From Escherichia coli (GTDB lineage: Bacteria > Pseudomonadota > Gammaproteobacteria > Enterobacterales > Enterobacteriaceae), in NCBI RefSeq assembly GCF_003334255.1, contig NZ_QOWU01000046.1: DNA of 43,525 nucleotides, one strand, 5' to 3'. The first letter of the stretch is position 1; each line of letters opens with the position of its first letter. Below the pieces are notes generated by a model. The model made no database searches and had not been told where the DNA came from. It saw only the letters and a list, made by a program, of their open reading frames with translations. Below are positions 10,682 to 32,726 of this stretch, in pieces. A program made the translations under genes and the position numbers.

Positions 10682-11674
10682 TTATGGCAATGGGTTATTG
10701 GCCCGACGCGCCAGCCACTCTTTAATTTGCTGGCGATGCAGGCTAACGGAACGACCTACGACAACGACGATAAGTAGCGCACCGGAAAGGGCGCTGGACA
10801 CCTGATTTGGCACTCCTGCCATTTGCAAACCTTGTTGCAAATATCCCACTAATAAAACCGCAATGGCGGTGCCGATAATGGAACCGGAACCACCATAAAT
10901 ATTGGCCCCGCCAAGCACCACGGCGGTGATGGCGGGCATCAGAAACGACGCACCGAGATCGGAACGTGCTGAACCAAAATACGATACCAGCAGCACAGCG
11001 GCGACCGCAGACGCCAGCCCCGTCATGGCATAGAGCGCACATAAGGTACGGTTAACTGGAATCGCGCTATAAAGCGCCACGCGCGGGCTTTGCCCAATCA
11101 AAAACACATTACGTCCGGCATGGGTTTTATGCAGCCAGAGCCAGAAAACGAGGAGACATATCAGGAAGATAATCAGCGGAACGGGGAGTCCCAGCACATC
11201 CAGGTTAGCGAAATCTGTAAACGCCATCGGGAATCCACCAATACCTTCGTACCCCGTCGCTCCGGCCATACCGGAAAGCAGCAGAGCGCTTCCGGCAAAC
11301 AGATACAGCGTGCCAAGCGTAATCACCAGCGGGTTAACTTTGGTATAGATAATTAATCCGGCGTTGATCAGCCCGCACAATGCGCCGAGCAGTAAGGTCA
11401 GGAGTATCGCCAGCGGCATCGGCACACCACTTTGAAACAGTACGCCCAATGCAATGGCGCAGAGGCCGATGGTCGAACCAAACGAAATATCGATCCCGCC
11501 ACTGACAATCACCATCGTTAGCGGTAGGGCGACAATGCCAATGCAGATAAAGTCACTGGTGCTGAACAGCAACATATTGAGATCTAACATTCGCGGGTTA
11601 ATTGCACCAAATGCGACAATCTCAATAACGAGCAGTGCGGCAAGAGCCAGTTCCCAACCGTAGCGAATACGCAT
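10682..11674 (-). CDS. lsrD: AI-2 ABC transporter permease LsrD
   Basis: 330-aa polytopic membrane ORF; its start overlaps the lsrC stop. Confidence 0.9.
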
Positions 11675-12702
11675 TATGCGGCCTCCCGTTTTTTACCTGA
11701 CGAAGCGGGTTTAACGGATGGCGGTGGCGTCATAAAGCGGGCATATTTTTGCCGCCGTAGATTACGTTCCAGCGCACAACGCAGGCGTCCATCAAACACC
11801 AGCACCGCCAGCAGAACCAGACCCGCGATAAAATCATTCCACCATGCCGGAATGCGCAACAGCACCAGTACGCTATCGATCTGCGTCAGGAACCATGCGC
11901 CGAGTACCGCACCAATGATCGCACCGGAACCACCGAGCAAACTAATGCCGCCCAGCACGCAGGCTGCAATTGCTTTCATCTCCAGCCCGGTACCGGTCTG
12001 GTTGGGGATAAAACCAATCTGCGAAGCAAACACAATTCCCGCCAGTGCCGCCATGCAGCCGTTCAACGAAAATGCCACAATGCGAATGGCTTCAGTACGA
12101 ACGCCCAGTTGACGAGCGCCCTGTAAATTATCGCCCGTGGCATAAAAACTGCGTCCAAACGCCGTCTTTGCCAGCAGCCAGGCCATAAATGCCACCAGAA
12201 TTATCGTCAACCAACCAATTGCTGAAACGCCAAGCAGCAGCGGGGCGGAGAGCTGTTTCAGTTCGGCGGGTAACCCTTCAATCCATTTGCCGCCAGTCCA
12301 CAGCAACATGATGCCTCTGTACAACCCTAACGTGCCAAGGGTGGCAACAATGGCAGGGATCTTTAGCCACGCGACCAGGACACCGTTGAAAAATCCCGCG
12401 AGCAAACCAAGCAGTAAAGTCGCGACACAAGCAACAGGTAGTGAATATCCTGCGTTCAGTAACATCCCCAACAGCACCGCGCACATTCCGGTAATCGAAC
12501 CCACTGAAACATCAATATTGCGCGTAAGCATTACCAGCGTCGCGCCCATTGCCAGCAGGATCAGGATTTGCGCGCTGCTATAAACCATGGTCAGCGTTTG
12601 CACACTTAAATACTGGCGGTCGAGAAAACCGGGTAATACAAACAGCAGCACCACCGCCAGCAGTGCCGTGATTTCACGGTTGTTCTGAATAAACTTCAGC
12701 AT
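11674..12702 (-). CDS. lsrC: AI-2 ABC transporter permease LsrC
   Basis: 342-aa polytopic membrane ORF; overlaps the lsrA 3' end by 7 nt. Confidence 0.9.
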
Positions 12703-14231
12703 GACGCCTCCTGACGCTGACTATCGCCGAAGGCAACGCGCATAATAGTCTCGACATTAATATCGCGCTCGGTCAGTGCAGAGTGGGTAATTTCGCCCTG
12801 ATGCATCACATACACACGATCTGCCATCAGTTCGATCTCTTCCAGGTCGGAGGAGATAAGCAGCACAGCCACATTTTGTGCGGCGATGCTGCGCAACAGC
12901 TGGTAGATATCATTACGGGCCGAGACATCCACGCCGCGCGTCGGCTCATCGACAATCAATACTTGCGGCGAAGCTTCCAGGCATTTGGCAATGAGGATTT
13001 TTTGCTGGTTGCCACCGGATAATGTCCGTGCAGCTTGTTCCGGTTGGTTGAATTTAATATTCAGCGCCCGACGATAACGTTCCAGGGTGGCATTATCTTT
13101 CGCGGTTTTCGCCCAGAATCCACGAAGGTTATGAGTAAGGGCGCAGACGTTCCAGGCCAGCGAAGCATCGAGATTCAGTCCGGATGACTGGCGATCTTCC
13201 GGCAGATAAACCAGACCGCGCAGTAAACGTTCTCCAGTGGATAATTTATTGATCTCTTTACCATTCAGCATAATGCGTCCGCCACGCAAAGTACGCAGAC
13301 CATAGAGCGTCTCGGCCAGTTCTGTGCGTCCGGCCCCCACCAGCCCAGCCAGGCCCAGAATTTCTCCGGCATTGAGCGTCAGGCTGACATTCCTGAAACC
13401 TTCGCCGGTCAGATTTTCCAGTGTCAGCACCGGCGTTCCGGCGGCATGTTGTGGGCGGTTACCAGGTAACTCCAGCCATAATTTTTGGCTGGCAGAGAGC
13501 GATTTTTCCCGTACCGCTGGGGTGATGGCCTGAATAATGTCGTCGGTAGACAGTTCGCTGGTTTTGCCGCTTAAGGCGATGGTTCCGTCGCGCATCACGC
13601 TAATTCGATCGGCAATCTGGCGAATTTCCGGCAGCTTATGCGAGATAAAAACAATACCCACGCCAGTAGCAAGCAGCTCTTGCAAGCGACTAAACAAGCG
13701 TTCGGTTTCCGCAGGGGTAAGCGAGGCGGTAGGTTCATCGAGGATCAGAATCCGCGAGTCGCGCATCAGCCCGCGGAGGATTTCCACCATTTGGCGATCG
13801 GCGACATCCAGCGATCCTGCCAGACTATGCAGATCAAACTGGCAGCCCAGCGCCGCCAGCAAGTTCTTCATTTTCTGCATGGAGAGCTGTTTTTTTGCCA
13901 GCCCAAACAGGATGTTTTCTTTTATCGACAGGCTTGGGAAAAGCAGCGGTTCCTGGGGAACGAGATAAATACCCAGCTGATGAGCATGAACTGGCGTTAA
14001 TCTGACGTAGTTGTTGCCCTCAATCTCCAGCGTACCGCTATCAGCAGGGGTAATACCGGCAATAATCTTCATTAACGTCGATTTACCGGCACCATTGCCG
14101 CCGAGCAGGGCGTGGACCTCCCCCTGATGCAACGTAAAATCGATGCCTTTCAGGACATTGACCCCTGAATACTGTTTATAAACCGAGCGGGCGCAAAGTA
14201 GCGGTAACGCGCGGGTATCACTCGTTTGCAT
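12696..14231 (-). CDS. lsrA: AI-2 ABC transporter ATPase LsrA (two nucleotide-binding domains)
   Basis: 511-aa ORF with duplicated Walker A ([17 protein letters not shown]) and ABC signature motifs. Confidence 0.9.
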
Positions 14232-14479
14232 ATTTCCCCCGTTCAGTTTTGCAGGTGAGTTTTGAACAAATGTATTTCTGCTTTTAATTTGTTCATAACC
14301 TTAGGTGGACATTGCACATATTTCCGACGAATAGATCACAATTTATGCTATTTTGATTTTCACGGTTGCGTTTGTTCATGCTCGTAGAGTCAAACTGTGG
14401 TTGCCATCACAGATATAAATGAGCAAGAACTGAACAATTGCATTAAAGATTTAAATATGTTCAAAGTGAAGAATGAATT
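14232..14479. promoter_or_regulatory. Divergent lsrA / lsrR promoter-operator region
   Basis: 248-bp AT-rich gap between the divergent lsrACDBFG and lsrRK start codons; contains the CRP-like site listed separately. Confidence 0.7.
14396..14411. promoter_or_regulatory. CRP-like binding site TGTGG-N6-TCACA
   Basis: Sequence TGTGGttgccaTCACA matches the CRP consensus TGTGA-N6-TCACA at 9 of 10 positions; the lsr operon is known to be cAMP-CRP dependent. Confidence 0.55.
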
Positions 14480-15433
14480 ATGACAATCAACGATTCGGCA
14501 ATTTCAGAACAGGGAATGTGTGAAGAAGAACAGGTCGCGCGGATCGCGTGGTTTTACTATCACGACGGGCTGACCCAGAGCGAGATCAGCGATCGTCTCG
14601 GCCTGACACGTTTGAAAGTGTCGCGATTGCTGGAGAAAGGGCATCAGTCCGGCATTATTCGCGTACAGATTAATTCTCGCTTTGAAGGCTGTCTGGAATA
14701 TGAAACTCAATTACGTCGTCAGTTTTCGCTGCAACATGTCCGGGTGATCCCTGGGCTTGCGGATGCTGATGTCGGTGGGCGACTGGGGATAGGCGCGGCG
14801 CATATGTTGATGAGTTTACTTCAACCACAACAGATGCTGGCGATTGGTTTTGGCGAGGCAACCATGAATACGCTGCAACGCTTAAGTGGTTTTATTTCGT
14901 CACAGCAAATTCGCCTGGTCACGCTCTCCGGTGGCGTCGGTTCTTATATGACGGGAATCGGGCAGCTTAACGCGGCGTGCAGTGTGAATATTATTCCGGC
15001 TCCGTTGCGGGCATCCTCCGCTGACATTGCCCGTACGCTAAAAAATGAAAATTGCGTCAAAGATGTTCTGTTAGCCGCGCAAGCAGCGGATGTGGCGATT
15101 GTCGGCATTGGTGCTGTGAGTCAACAGGACGATGCGACAATCATTCGCTCCGGTTATATCAGCCAGGGCGAACAGTTAATGATTGGCCGAAAAGGGGCGG
15201 TTGGCGACATTTTAGGCTACTTTTTTGATGCAAAAGGTGACGTTGTCACGAATATCAAAATACATAACGAACTGATTGGCTTACCTTTAAGCGCGCTGAA
15301 GACCATACCCGTCCGGGTTGGCGTGGCAGGGGGAGAAAATAAAGCCGAAGCAATTGCCGCTGCAATGAAAGGCGGTTATATCAACGCACTGGTTACCGAT
15401 CAGGACACAGCAGCGGCGATTTTACGTAGTTAA
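14480..15433 (+). CDS. lsrR: lsr operon repressor LsrR (SorC/DeoR family)
   Basis: 317-aa ORF with an N-terminal HTH and a sugar-phosphate-binding C-terminal domain. Confidence 0.9.
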
Positions 15434-15511: not shown

Positions 15512-17104
15512 ATGGCTCGACTCTTTACCCTTTCAGAATCAAAGTACTACCTGATGGCGCTGGATGCAGGCACCGGAAGTATTCGGGCTGTGATATTCGA
15601 CCTGGAAGGCAATCAAATAGCAGTGGGACAGGCGGAGTGGCGGCATCTGGCAGTACCGGACGTTCCTGGTTCTATGGAATTTGATCTCAACAAAAACTGG
15701 CAACTGGCGTGTGAGTGTATGCGCCAGGCGCTGCACAACGCCGGCATAGCCCCGGAGTATATCGCTGCCGTTTCGGCATGTTCGATGCGTGAAGGCATTG
15801 TTTTATATAATAATGAAGGAGCCCCGATCTGGGCCTGCGCCAATGTGGATGCCAGAGCGGCACGCGAAGTTAGCGAACTTAAAGAACTGCACAACAATAC
15901 CTTTGAAAACGAAGTTTATCGCGCGACCGGACAAACACTGGCTTTAAGTGCCATCCCCAGATTACTTTGGCTGGCGCACCATCGTTCCGATATTTACCGT
16001 CAGGCATCAACCATCACCATGATCAGCGACTGGCTGGCCTATATGCTCAGCGGCGAACTGGCGGTGGATCCCTCTAACGCTGGCACCACGGGACTTCTTG
16101 ATCTAACCACCCGTGACTGGAAACCTGCATTGCTGGATATGGCTGGCCTACGTGCCGATATTCTTTCTCCTGTCAAAGAAACCGGCACATTGCTGGGCGT
16201 GGTAAGTTCACAAGCGGCGGAACTCTGCGGTCTGAAGGCGGGCACTCCGGTGGTCGTTGGAGGAGGCGACGTGCAGCTTGGTTGCCTTGGGTTAGGCGTT
16301 GTGCGTCCGGCACAAACCGCGGTTCTTGGCGGCACATTCTGGCAGCAAGTTGTAAATTTAGCCGCGCCGGTGACAGACCCAGAAATGAACGTGCGCGTTA
16401 ATCCTCATGTTATTCCTGGCATGGTACAAGCTGAATCTATAAGCTTTTTTACCGGACTCACCATGCGCTGGTTCCGCGATGCTTTCTGTGCCGAAGAAAA
16501 ACTGATTGCCGAACGTTTAGGCATCGACACCTATACGCTGCTGGAAGAGATGGCCAGTCGGGTGCCGCCTGGGTCGTGGGGCGTAATGCCGATCTTCTCC
16601 GACAGAATGCGCTTTAAAACCTGGTATCACGCTGCGCCTTCCTTTATTAACTTGTCCATTGACCCGGATAAATGTAACAAAGCGACATTGTTCCGTGCGC
16701 TGGAAGAAAATGCGGCGATTGTATCAGCGTGTAACTTGCAGCAAATTGCTGATTTCTCGAATATTCATCCTTCATCGTTAGTCTTTGCAGGCGGAGGTTC
16801 AAAAGGGAAATTATGGAGTCAAATTCTCGCTGATGTCTCGGGATTACCCGTCAATATTCCGGTGGTCAAAGAAGCCACTGCATTAGGATGTGCCATTGCA
16901 GCTGGCGTCGGTGCCGGAATTTTTTCATCAATGGCAGAAACCGGAGAACGCCTGGTTCGCTGGGAACGGACGCACACACCAGACCCGGAAAAGCATGAAC
17001 TTTATCAGGATTCACGCGATAAGTGGCAGGCAGTTTATCAGGATCAGCTGGGGCTGGTTGATCATGGACTGACGACGTCGTTATGGAAAGCGCCTGGGTT
17101 ATAG
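15512..17104 (+). CDS. lsrK: Autoinducer-2 kinase LsrK (FGGY carbohydrate kinase family)
   Basis: 530-aa ORF ([30 protein letters not shown]...). Confidence 0.9.
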
Positions 17105-17634: not shown

Positions 17635-20600
17635 ATGAATAGAATCTATCGCGTGATATGGAATTGCACTCTACAGGTATTTCAGGCCTGCTCGGAATTA
17701 ACTCGCAGGGCAGGTAAAACATCGACGGTTAATTTGCGTAAATCCTCTGGACTGACAACGAAATTCAGTAGATTGACGCTGGGTGTTTTGCTGGCACTAA
17801 GCGGTTCAGCGTCTGGTGCAAGTCTGGAAGTTGATAATGATCAGATTACCAATATTGATACTGATGTTGCTTATGATGCCTACCTGGTTGGCTGGTATGG
17901 CACTGGAGTGCTTAATATTTTGGCTGGCGGTAATGCCTCCTTAACCACTATTACTACCAGCGTCATTGGCGCTAATGAGGACTCAGAGGGCACCGTTAAT
18001 GTTTTGGGTGGCACCTGGCGATTGTATGATAGCGGAAATAATGCAAGGCCTTTAAATGTGGGTCAATCCGGAACGGGGACGCTGAATATTAAACAGAAGG
18101 GTCACGTCGATGGAGGCTATTTAAGATTAGGTTCTTCGACAGGAGGCGTCGGGACGGTCAATGTTGAGGGAGAGGACTCTGTTCTGACGACCGAATTATT
18201 CGAAATAGGTAGCTATGGCACAGGTTCATTAAATATTACGGATAAGGGTTACGTCACGAGTTCAATCGTCGCCATTTTAGGCTATCAGGCGGGCAGTAAT
18301 GGCCAGGTTGTCGTTGAAAAGGGTGGCGAGTGGCTAATAAAAAATAATGATTCCTCAATTGAATTTCAAATTGGTAATCAAGGAACTGGGGAGGCGACTA
18401 TTCGCGAGGGGGGGTTGGTTACGGCTGAAAATACGATTATCGGTGGCAATGCCACCGGTATCGGAACCCTGAATGTGCAGGATCAAGACTCTGTCATCAC
18501 GGTACGCAGACTCTATAATGGATATTTCGGTAATGGCACAGTCAATATTTCCAATAATGGACTGATTAATAACAAAGAATATTCATTGGTGGGCGTTCAG
18601 GACGGTTCCCACGGTGTCGTCAACGTGACCGATAAAGGGCATTGGAATTTCCTCGGAACGGGCGAAGCTTTCCGCTATATCTATATCGGTGATGCTGGCG
18701 ACGGTGAACTTAATGTCTCGAGTGAAGGCAAAGTAGATTCGGGAATTATCACTGCGGGGATGAAAGAAACAGGCACAGGCAACATTACTGTTAAGGATAA
18801 GAACTCCGTTATCACTAATCTCGGAACTAATCTTGGTTATGACGGCCACGGCGAAATGAATATCAGTAATCAGGGGCTTGTTGTCAGCAACGGAGGAAGT
18901 TCACTCGGTTATGGAGAAACCGGCGTCGGGAATGTCAGCATCACCACGGGGGGAATGTGGGAGGTCAATAAGAATGTCTATACCACCATTGGTGTTGCGG
19001 GCGTCGGAAACCTCAATATTAGCGATGGCGGTAAGTTCGTATCGCAAAATATTACTTTTTTGGGCGATAAAGCAAGCGGTATCGGCACACTGAACCTGAT
19101 GGATGCGACATCATCGTTCGATACTGTGGGTATCAATGTCGGTAATTTTGGTAGCGGTATCGTAAATGTCAGTAATGGTGCCACCCTTAATTCAACGGGC
19201 TATGGATTTATCGGAGGAAATGCCTCCGGTAAGGGGATAGTTAATATTTCAACGGACAGTCTCTGGAATTTAAAGACATCATCTACTAACGCACAATTGC
19301 TACAGGTCGGTGTATTAGGCACGGGTGAACTGAATATTACCACCGGAGGTATAGTTAAAGCGCGTGATACACAGATAGCTCTCAATGACAAAAGTAAGGG
19401 CGACGTGAGGGTGGATGGGCAGAACTCTCTTCTTGAAACATTCAATATGTACGTAGGGACATCTGGTACGGGTACGTTAACCCTGACGAATAACGGTACG
19501 CTGAATGTCGAAGGTGGAGAAGTTTACTTAGGTGTTTTTGAGCCTGCTGTAGGAACGCTAAACATTGGTGCTGCTCACGGTGAGGCGGCGGCAGATGCCG
19601 GATTTATCACCAATGCGACGAAAGTGGAGTTTGGTCTTGGCGAAGGCGTTTTTGTCTTTAATCATACCAATAACAGTGATGCCGGCTACCAGGTCGATAT
19701 GCTGATTACAGGTGACGATAAAGACGGAAAAGTGATCCATGATGCAGGCCATACGGTGTTCAATGCAGGGAATACTTATAGCGGTAAAACGCTGGTCAAT
19801 GACGGCCTCCTGACCATTGCGTCTCATACGGCAGATGGGGTAACGGGCATGGGGTCGAGTGAAGTAACCATTGCAAACCCCGGTACGCTCGACATTCTCG
19901 CATCAACGAACAGTGCAGGAGATTACACGCTGACCAATGCGCTCAAAGGCGATGGCTTGATGCGAGTGCAGCTGTCATCCTCCGACAAGATGTTTGGCTT
20001 TACCCATGCAACAGGGACTGAATTCGCCGGTGTTGCCCAACTGAAAGACAGTACCTTCACTCTGGAACGCGACAACACCGCTGCGCTTACTCACGCGATG
20101 TTGCAGTCTGACAGTGAAAATACCACATCGGTAAAAGTTGGAGAGCAATCCATTGGTGGACTGGCCATGAATGGAGGTACCATCATTTTCGATACGGATA
20201 TTCCTGCTGCGACGCTCGCGGAGGGATATATCAGCGTCGATACGCTGGTTGTCGGCGCGGGTGACTACACCTGGAAAGGCCGTAACTATCAGGTAAACGG
20301 GACGGGCGACGTGCTTATCGACGTGCCTAAACCGTGGAATGATCCCATGGCGAATAACCCTCTGACGACGCTCAATTTGCTGGAACACGACGATAGCCAT
20401 GTCGGCGTTCAACTGGTGAAGGCGCAAACGGTTATTGGGTCGGGTGGCTCATTAACGTTACGTGATTTACAGGGCGACGAGGTGGAAGCGGACAAAACGT
20501 TACACATTGCGCAAAACGGAACGGTGGTCGCCGAGGGTGATTATGGATTCCGCCTCACGACCGCACCAGGTAATGGTTTGTACGTTAACTATGGGCTGAA

Positions 20601-32406: not shown

Positions 32407-32726
32407 GGCGATATATTTATTGAAATAAATAAGTGACATCCATCACATATTTATGCACTTGCATAACCTGTTGCATGATTATTTATGATCTCAATTCTGC
32501 ATTTTGTCAGTAAAATGCAATAATTTATTAAATATCAATAAATTAGTTGTTTATCGGCGAGAAATTACTTAATAGAACAGAAAGTAATGTCAACGCTTTA
32601 TGGACTGTTTTTTCCCTTTTTTTAGCTAAATCTGCTATCTCTTTATGTGACTAACTTCACTTACATCCACTTATTTCTCTTCGTAAAATTACTTTGGAAT
32701 TAAGTACAATAAGAAGAGGAACATTT

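Follow-up and report, generated by a model that had tools for sequence, protein, structure and literature searches.

The window, that is, the whole 43,525-nt stretch of DNA analysed, belongs to the E. coli chromosome and is 99.95-99.98% identical to K-12 MG1655, in reverse orientation. It carries the lsr locus, in which lsrACDBFG and lsrRK are transcribed away from each other (Table 1). All eight genes of the Lsr regulon are present, intact and divergently arranged, with the synteny of MG1655, and the eight proteins (A, C, D, B, F, G, R and K) are 100% identical to those of that strain; in lsrA one synonymous change is found at 12980. The ATG of lsrA lies at 14231 on the minus strand and that of lsrR at 14480, so that 14232-14479 is the exact intergenic spacer of 248 bp, itself 100% identical to NC_000913.3 1601242-1601489. 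The preliminary description had considered lsrACDBFG plus lsrRK as complete, and this was borne out, the locus being intact and identical to that of a strain which imports AI-2. MG1655 is the strain used in lsr reporter and AI-2 work, and judging by this identity both AI-2 import and induction by phospho-AI-2 look functional. A Rfam scan of the whole window returned zero matches, and thus no RNA element was found to compete for the region. Among complete E. coli genomes the spacer is present in 4179 of 5426, about 23% being without it; in the same collection three copies are plasmid-borne, and in one genome the spacer is reduced to a 49-nt remnant under an autotransporter gene.

Table 1. Genes and control elements of the lsr locus, in window coordinates.
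Feature	Position	Strand	Basis
lsrG	8432-8722	-	NCBIfam equivalog above cut-off; protein identical to MG1655
lsrF	8746-9621	-	NCBIfam equivalog above cut-off; protein identical to MG1655
lsrB	9648-10670	-	NCBIfam equivalog above cut-off; protein identical to MG1655
lsrD	10682-11674	-	NCBIfam equivalog above cut-off; protein identical to MG1655
lsrC	11674-12702	-	NCBIfam equivalog above cut-off; protein identical to MG1655
lsrA (ATPase of the AI-2 ABC transporter; heads lsrACDBFG)	12696-14231	-	958 bits against a cut-off of 586
LsrR operator, p-lsrA box, TGAACAAATG...ATTTGTTCA, 33 nt, palindrome-ended	14263-14295		direct and inverted repeat
Candidate lsrA -10, TAAGGT	14298-14303	-	TAnnnT kept at the aligned position in 19/19 orthologues
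CRPI, weak CRP site (TGTGATCTATTCGTCG on the minus strand)	14325-14340		published FIMO match
Third LsrR-box-like element	14346-14378		same offset in 19/19 orthologues
Distal lsrR promoter, extended -10 TGcTATTTT (14346-14354) and start A14362	14346-14362	+	SMRT-Cappable-seq TSS
CRPII, cAMP-CRP site core TGTGGTTGCCATCACA = TGTGG-TTGCCA-TCACA	14396-14411		equals published CRPII
LsrR operator, p-lsrR box, TGAACAATTG...ATATGTTCA, 33 nt	14431-14463		repeats and published position
lsrR (repressor)	14480-15433	+	NCBIfam equivalog above cut-off; protein identical to MG1655
lsrK (AI-2 kinase)	15512-17104	+	NCBIfam equivalog above cut-off; protein identical to MG1655

The motif flagged in the spacer is part of the 22-mer AACTGTGGTTGCCATCACAGAT at 14393-14414, and the preliminary description was correct both in its sequence and in its location between the lsrA and lsrR starts. 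The motif is centred on 14403.5, at a distance of 172.5 bp from the ATG of lsrA and of 76.5 bp from that of lsrR, and nine of its ten core positions match TGTGA-N6-TCACA. The site was scored with a symmetrised 22-bp CRP matrix built from 17 classic sites, a matrix to be taken as approximate. On this scale, where the training sites range from 4.2 to 17.3 bits with a median of 14.2 and the ideal consensus reaches 25.4, the site obtains 11.75 bits and ranks fifth among the 43,504 positions of the window. The term near-consensus is thus appropriate for the ten core bases, whereas the full site is only moderate; it nevertheless passes the matrix scan put forward as a check, with a score in the range of validated sites and a FIMO p value of about 1e-6. 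The latter comes from a preprint (10.64898/2026.06.09.730415, Table S4) in which lsr loci were scanned by FIMO with a CollecTF-derived matrix, and where the same 16-mer, written as its reverse complement TGTGATGGCAACCACA, has p values of 8.7e-7 to 1.5e-6 in E. coli genomes. That study covers about 20,000 Enterobacteriaceae genomes, scanned for exactly these CRP sites. A full-text literature search with the sequence of the site itself gave nothing relevant.

The published positions of the two CRP sites of this region, CRPI and CRPII, were reconstructed from the landmarks of Hauk 2016 (PMC5137460) and from the FIMO table of the preprint. The former gives the order p-lsrR box, CRPII, CRPI, p-lsrA box, and describes TGTGCAAT, which lies at 14311-14318 on the minus strand, as 'very close to CRPI'. 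The second E. coli match of the preprint contains TGTGATCTATTCGTCG, with a p value of 3.8e-5, and is CRPI; this match at 14325-14340, together with the published order, identifies the flagged site as CRPII. All the published landmarks (-237 to -197, AACAAT, AAGATTTAA and TGTGCAAT) map exactly in the MG1655 lsrA-lsrR region, which has the same spacer and the same Lsr proteins as the window. CRPI differs greatly from CRPII in strength, the two sites being 71 bp apart. CRPI has one good half-site only, scores just 2.0 bits on our 22-bp matrix and is centred on 14332.5, the ATG of lsrA being 101.5 bp away; its GATCAC (14334-14339) is invariant across nine genera.

In order to judge the significance of CRPII, we compared 25 loci with an LsrR relative and a divergent lsrA (L002-L026), plus one remote locus with lsrR only (L027), from Escherichia, Citrobacter, Kluyvera, an Enterobacteriaceae MAG (UBA5654), Superficieibacter, Izhakiella, Serratia sp., Mangrovibacter, Buttiauxella and Edwardsiella. 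The Buttiauxella loci (L019-L025), with spacers of different size and weak CRP matches, were left out of the alignment, which comprises 19 spacers of nine genera; the conservation values are those of 13 non-redundant orthologues. The best CRP match stands at the CRPII position in all 19 non-Buttiauxella spacers, its distance being 172.5-175.5 bp to the ATG of lsrA and 75.5-78.5 bp to that of lsrR. Little or no variation is seen in the half-sites TGTGG and TCACAG, whose conservation is 0.95-1.00, against 0.44 for the 6-bp spacer between them, which drifts through TTGCCA, TGGCTA, GTTCTC, CCCGGA, TATATG and others. When the contrast between half-sites and centre is computed in a sliding 5-6-5 frame, the maximum falls exactly at 14396, the top value among all positions of the intergenic spacer. 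Judged from the alignment, this pattern is the classic footprint of the operator of a dimeric factor. The lsrA-lsrR spacer measures 248-251 bp across the nine genera (L002-L018 and L026), despite heavy drift between the boxes, and this fixed length indicates that the spacing of all elements is constrained. The Salmonella rows of the preprint have a CRPI-equivalent match only and none equivalent to CRPII, which suggests that CRPII is clade-specific rather than universal.

These data bear directly on the possibility that the motif is a functionless chance match to the CRP consensus. By chance alone, about two matches of CRPII quality would turn up in 43.5 kb and 0.011 in 248 bp, and the TGTGA-N6-TCACA core with at most one mismatch occurs four times in the window against 1.3 expected, a count barely above that of shuffled sequences, which by itself is weak evidence for CRPII. 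Such figures would agree with a chance origin, but the retention of the half-sites with a free centre, in nine genera and at a fixed distance from both genes, rules it out, and the published CRP dependence and SELEX binding point the same way. We therefore rejected this reading, as extremely improbable, on the phylogenetic footprint across the 19 spacers, and the same conservation was decisive in upholding the claim that a real CRP site lies in the divergent lsr control region.

The published genetics of the system is in line with this assignment. Genomic SELEX recovered lsrA among the CRP targets, deletion of crp abolishes lsr expression independently of LsrR, direct activation by CRP has been described for lsrACDBFG as well as for lsrR, and a CRP-LsrR-lsr feed-forward loop is contained in RegulonDB-derived networks. 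It could still be argued that CTGTGG-N6-TCACAG is primarily the target of a factor other than CRP, such as a CytR-type co-regulator or a different protein of the CRP/FNR family, as the G by which TGTGG departs from the consensus is kept, like the C and G on the flanks, while the centre drifts, and a link of CytR to the lsr promoter, near CRPI, has been proposed (Hauk 2016, PMC5137460). However, the motif is a canonical pair of CRP half-sites with 6-bp spacing, the proposed CytR octamer at 14311-14318 is away from CRPII and the phenotype of the crp deletion is complete, so we find this alternative very improbable. Thus, we assign the flagged motif, with a probability of roughly 90%, as CRPII, the high-affinity operator for cAMP-CRP in the lsr regulon of E. 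coli, in a control region that is base-for-base that of MG1655. CRPII, CRPI, the LsrR boxes and the dependence on CRP are already known, having been published for the identical sequence, and a large comparative scan exists.

The CytR proposal is connected with a promoter-up mutation, TGTGCAAT to TGTACAAT, which was ascribed to a CytR site (Hauk 2016, PMC5137460). With the same change TGCAAT becomes TACAAT, a hexamer resembling a -10, and the gain of this hexamer may possibly be a simpler account of the mutation than CytR.

The search for LsrR operator repeats, also suggested beforehand, led to two 33-nt boxes, the p-lsrA box and the p-lsrR box (Table 1). Both have the form TGAACA...TGTTCA, their starts are 168 bp apart, and in each of the 19 orthologues both occupy the same 33-nt frame. 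In the p-lsrA box the arms have a conservation of 0.97-0.98 and the middle one of 0.65. The p-lsrR box holds AACAAT (14433-14438) and AAGATTTAA (14446-14454), the two parts reported as essential, and its published limits of -237 to -197 from the lsrA ATG correspond to window positions 14428-14468 (Hauk 2016, PMC5137460). A third element resembling an LsrR box lies between them, with its start 83 bp past that of the first box and 83-85 bp ahead of that of the second, about eight helical turns in each case. Escherichia has a degenerate version, which keeps the TGTTCA arm (14373-14378) only and in E. coli scores -11 bits (p about 0.08), while in Kluyvera, Serratia, Mangrovibacter and Edwardsiella it reaches 8-19 bits, with none of 300 shuffles as good. 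Both the extended -10 and the lsrR start mapped to 14362 fall within the element. LsrR may bind there; the published LsrR operators of the spacer are two only. In a literature search neither a third LsrR-like box nor an lsrR start located upstream of CRPII was found discussed, and the search gave no DNA looping data for the lsr spacer.

A simple scan of 14150-14560 for sigma-70 promoters and terminators yielded no consensus promoter or terminator. This null result is expected for activator-dependent promoters and the scan was not used as evidence; given that no consensus sigma-70 promoter was found, the promoter geometry that follows is an inferred one. For lsrR, SMRT-Cappable-seq mapped a start in both M9 and Rich media (operon b1512, TSS 1601359, reverse strand; Yan 2018, PMC6131387, Supplementary Data 2), and the use of NC_000913.3 coordinates in that work was confirmed by the neighbouring yneE and uxaB entries. 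This start converts to the A at window position 14362, with a leader of 118 nt to the lsrR ATG; -10-like hexamers are also present at this distal promoter in the orthologues. CRPII is then located at +41.5, inside the leader of the 14362 transcript together with the p-lsrR operator, and CRPI at -29.5. Both media of the SMRT-Cappable-seq experiments are said to contain glucose, and if so the 14362 start would belong to a CRP-independent promoter. A second, proximal lsrR promoter can be drawn on the sequence, with AACAAT (14433-14438) as its -10, a start at about 14445 and CRPII at -41.5; it is hypothetical, and the invariance of AACAAT proves nothing about a -10 role, because the LsrR operator has the same hexamer as its core. 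On the other side of the spacer, the candidate -10 of lsrA would set the lsrA start at about 14291, placing CRPI at -41.5, as in a class II promoter, CRPII at about -112.5 and the first LsrR box across -4 to +29. The SMRT-Cappable-seq data (PMC6131387) contain the lsrR start only, the lsrA start not being found among them, and the Cappable-seq supplement (PMC4782308) has no lsr entries.

According to the preliminary description, the position of the motif lets it serve both promoters. That CRP controls both operons is indeed published, and this part of the claim stands; as to the single site, the claim is incomplete, given a CRPI nearer to lsrA, an lsrR start upstream of CRPII and a CRPI-equivalent alone in the Salmonella rows of the preprint. 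A shared site that directly activates both divergent promoters, as in araC-araBAD, would account for the position of CRPII between the two genes as the strongest CRP match of the spacer, for the genetic activation of lsrACDBFG and of lsrR by CRP and for the spacer length fixed at 248-251 bp across genera. However, a conserved CRPI half-site is nearer to lsrA and stands about 41.5 bp away from that candidate start of the gene which is conserved best, the distance of CRPII from this start being about 112.5 bp; furthermore, CRPII is downstream of the mapped lsrR start, where +41.5 is not an activating position, and Salmonella appears to keep only the equivalent of CRPI. We consider the shared-site arrangement possible, though not probable.

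An alternative is that CRP switches between promoters. CRPII would then act mainly on lsrR, through the proximal start at about 14445, CRP bound at +41.5 (CRPII) and -29.5 (CRPI) would dampen the distal, CRP-independent promoter at 14362, and CRPI alone would drive lsrA. The mapping of the distal start in M9 and Rich media and its fitting extended -10 agree with this scheme, as do an invariant AACAAT at the right distance to be a -10 with CRPII at -41.5 and the constant separation of about 76.5 bp between CRPII and the lsrR ATG in 19 of 19 orthologues. Against it, the proximal lsrR start was not found on record, AACAAT would be invariant as the LsrR operator core with no need for a -10 role, and the scheme is inferential throughout. 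It seems to us rather unlikely.

Returning to the assignment of the motif as CRPII, the control region most probably works as follows. In the direction from lsrA to lsrR, the spacer contains LsrR operator 1 over the probable -10 and start of lsrA, CRPI, the degenerate LsrR-like box over the distal lsrR start, CRPII and LsrR operator 2. In the absence of preferred sugars, cAMP-CRP binds and drives transcription of lsrACDBFG and, by the published genetics, that of lsrRK as well. LsrR at its operators keeps the system off until phospho-AI-2 made by LsrK releases it, and the outcome is catabolite repression on top of quorum-sensing induction. Within this scheme CRPI probably acts as the class II site of lsrA at -41.5, assisted from upstream by CRPII at about -112.5, and CRPII may in addition drive the hypothetical proximal lsrR promoter starting at about 14445. 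CRP control links the uptake of the quorum-sensing signal AI-2 to the carbon status of the cell, hence glucose shuts off lsr, as is well established in E. coli K-12, and the strain studied here carries a wild-type switch identical to that of K-12. What retains interest is the pairing of CRP sites with promoters, the lsrR start upstream of the strong site and the conserved, phased third LsrR-like box.

These features may be combined in a bolder proposal, in which the spacer, constant in length, would form a rigid nucleoprotein switch rather than carry a simple shared activator site. Three LsrR boxes would be phased at eight helical turns, an undescribed middle box would sit on the distal lsrR promoter, bracketed by CRPI and CRPII, and CRPII, lying in the lsrR leader of the glucose phase, would take part in a CRP-driven promoter switch with the distal promoter turned off and the proximal one turned on. 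Taken as a whole, we rate this proposal as speculative and unlikely.

The organisation of the locus resembles that of araC-araBAD and malEp-malKp, with CRP site(s) between back-to-back operons for sugar-like ABC uptake and a pathway-specific regulator. Unlike those systems, the lsr regulator is a repressor of the SorC/DeoR type released by phospho-AI-2, not an activator, and there are two CRP sites, very unequal and 71 bp apart. A likeness to the deo operon, where DeoR has three phased operators and CRP and CytR act at deoP2, can also be recognised: the second NCBIfam match of LsrR is Bacillus DeoR, of the SorC family, the operator-like boxes of lsr are phased at whole helical turns (83-85 bp), the CRP sites are in tandem and a CytR link has been proposed. 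The difference is that two LsrR operators are published, the third box being predicted and degenerate in E. coli.

The comparison with MG1655 gave no differences in the control region, and those found elsewhere concern yneE, yneO, yneL and an IS1. The bestrophin-family gene yneE (about 6790-7613, plus strand) has an 86-bp deletion between TTTTC direct repeats with its junction at 6905-6909, which results in a frameshift and leaves an ORF of 216 aa; yneE is undeleted in all top RefSeq complete genomes. The autotransporter gene yneO (17635-23055, plus strand) is an intact ORF of 1806 aa, annotated as a pseudogene in MG1655, where one extra base is present near the position equivalent to window 21588. 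At 25210/25211, 467 bp of MG1655 (1590042-1590508) are missing, comprising most of the yneL pseudogene, beside ydeT. Window positions 1-77 are the end of an IS1 inserted beside ptrR, where MG1655 has no IS1; a few other E. coli genomes have an IS1 beside ptrR, at 97.5% identity.

The CRP matrix also gave matches outside the lsr locus. Between uxaB and yneE, GAATGTGATCGTAATCACGTTT at 6735-6756 scores 15.3 bits and is centred about 20 bp upstream of the start given for yneE in the literature (MG1655 1609046). In the ydeO-ydeN spacer, upstream of the sulfatase gene ydeN, matches are located at 32643-32664 (12.1 bits) and at 32429-32450 (16.1 bits), the latter being the best CRP-matrix match in the whole window.
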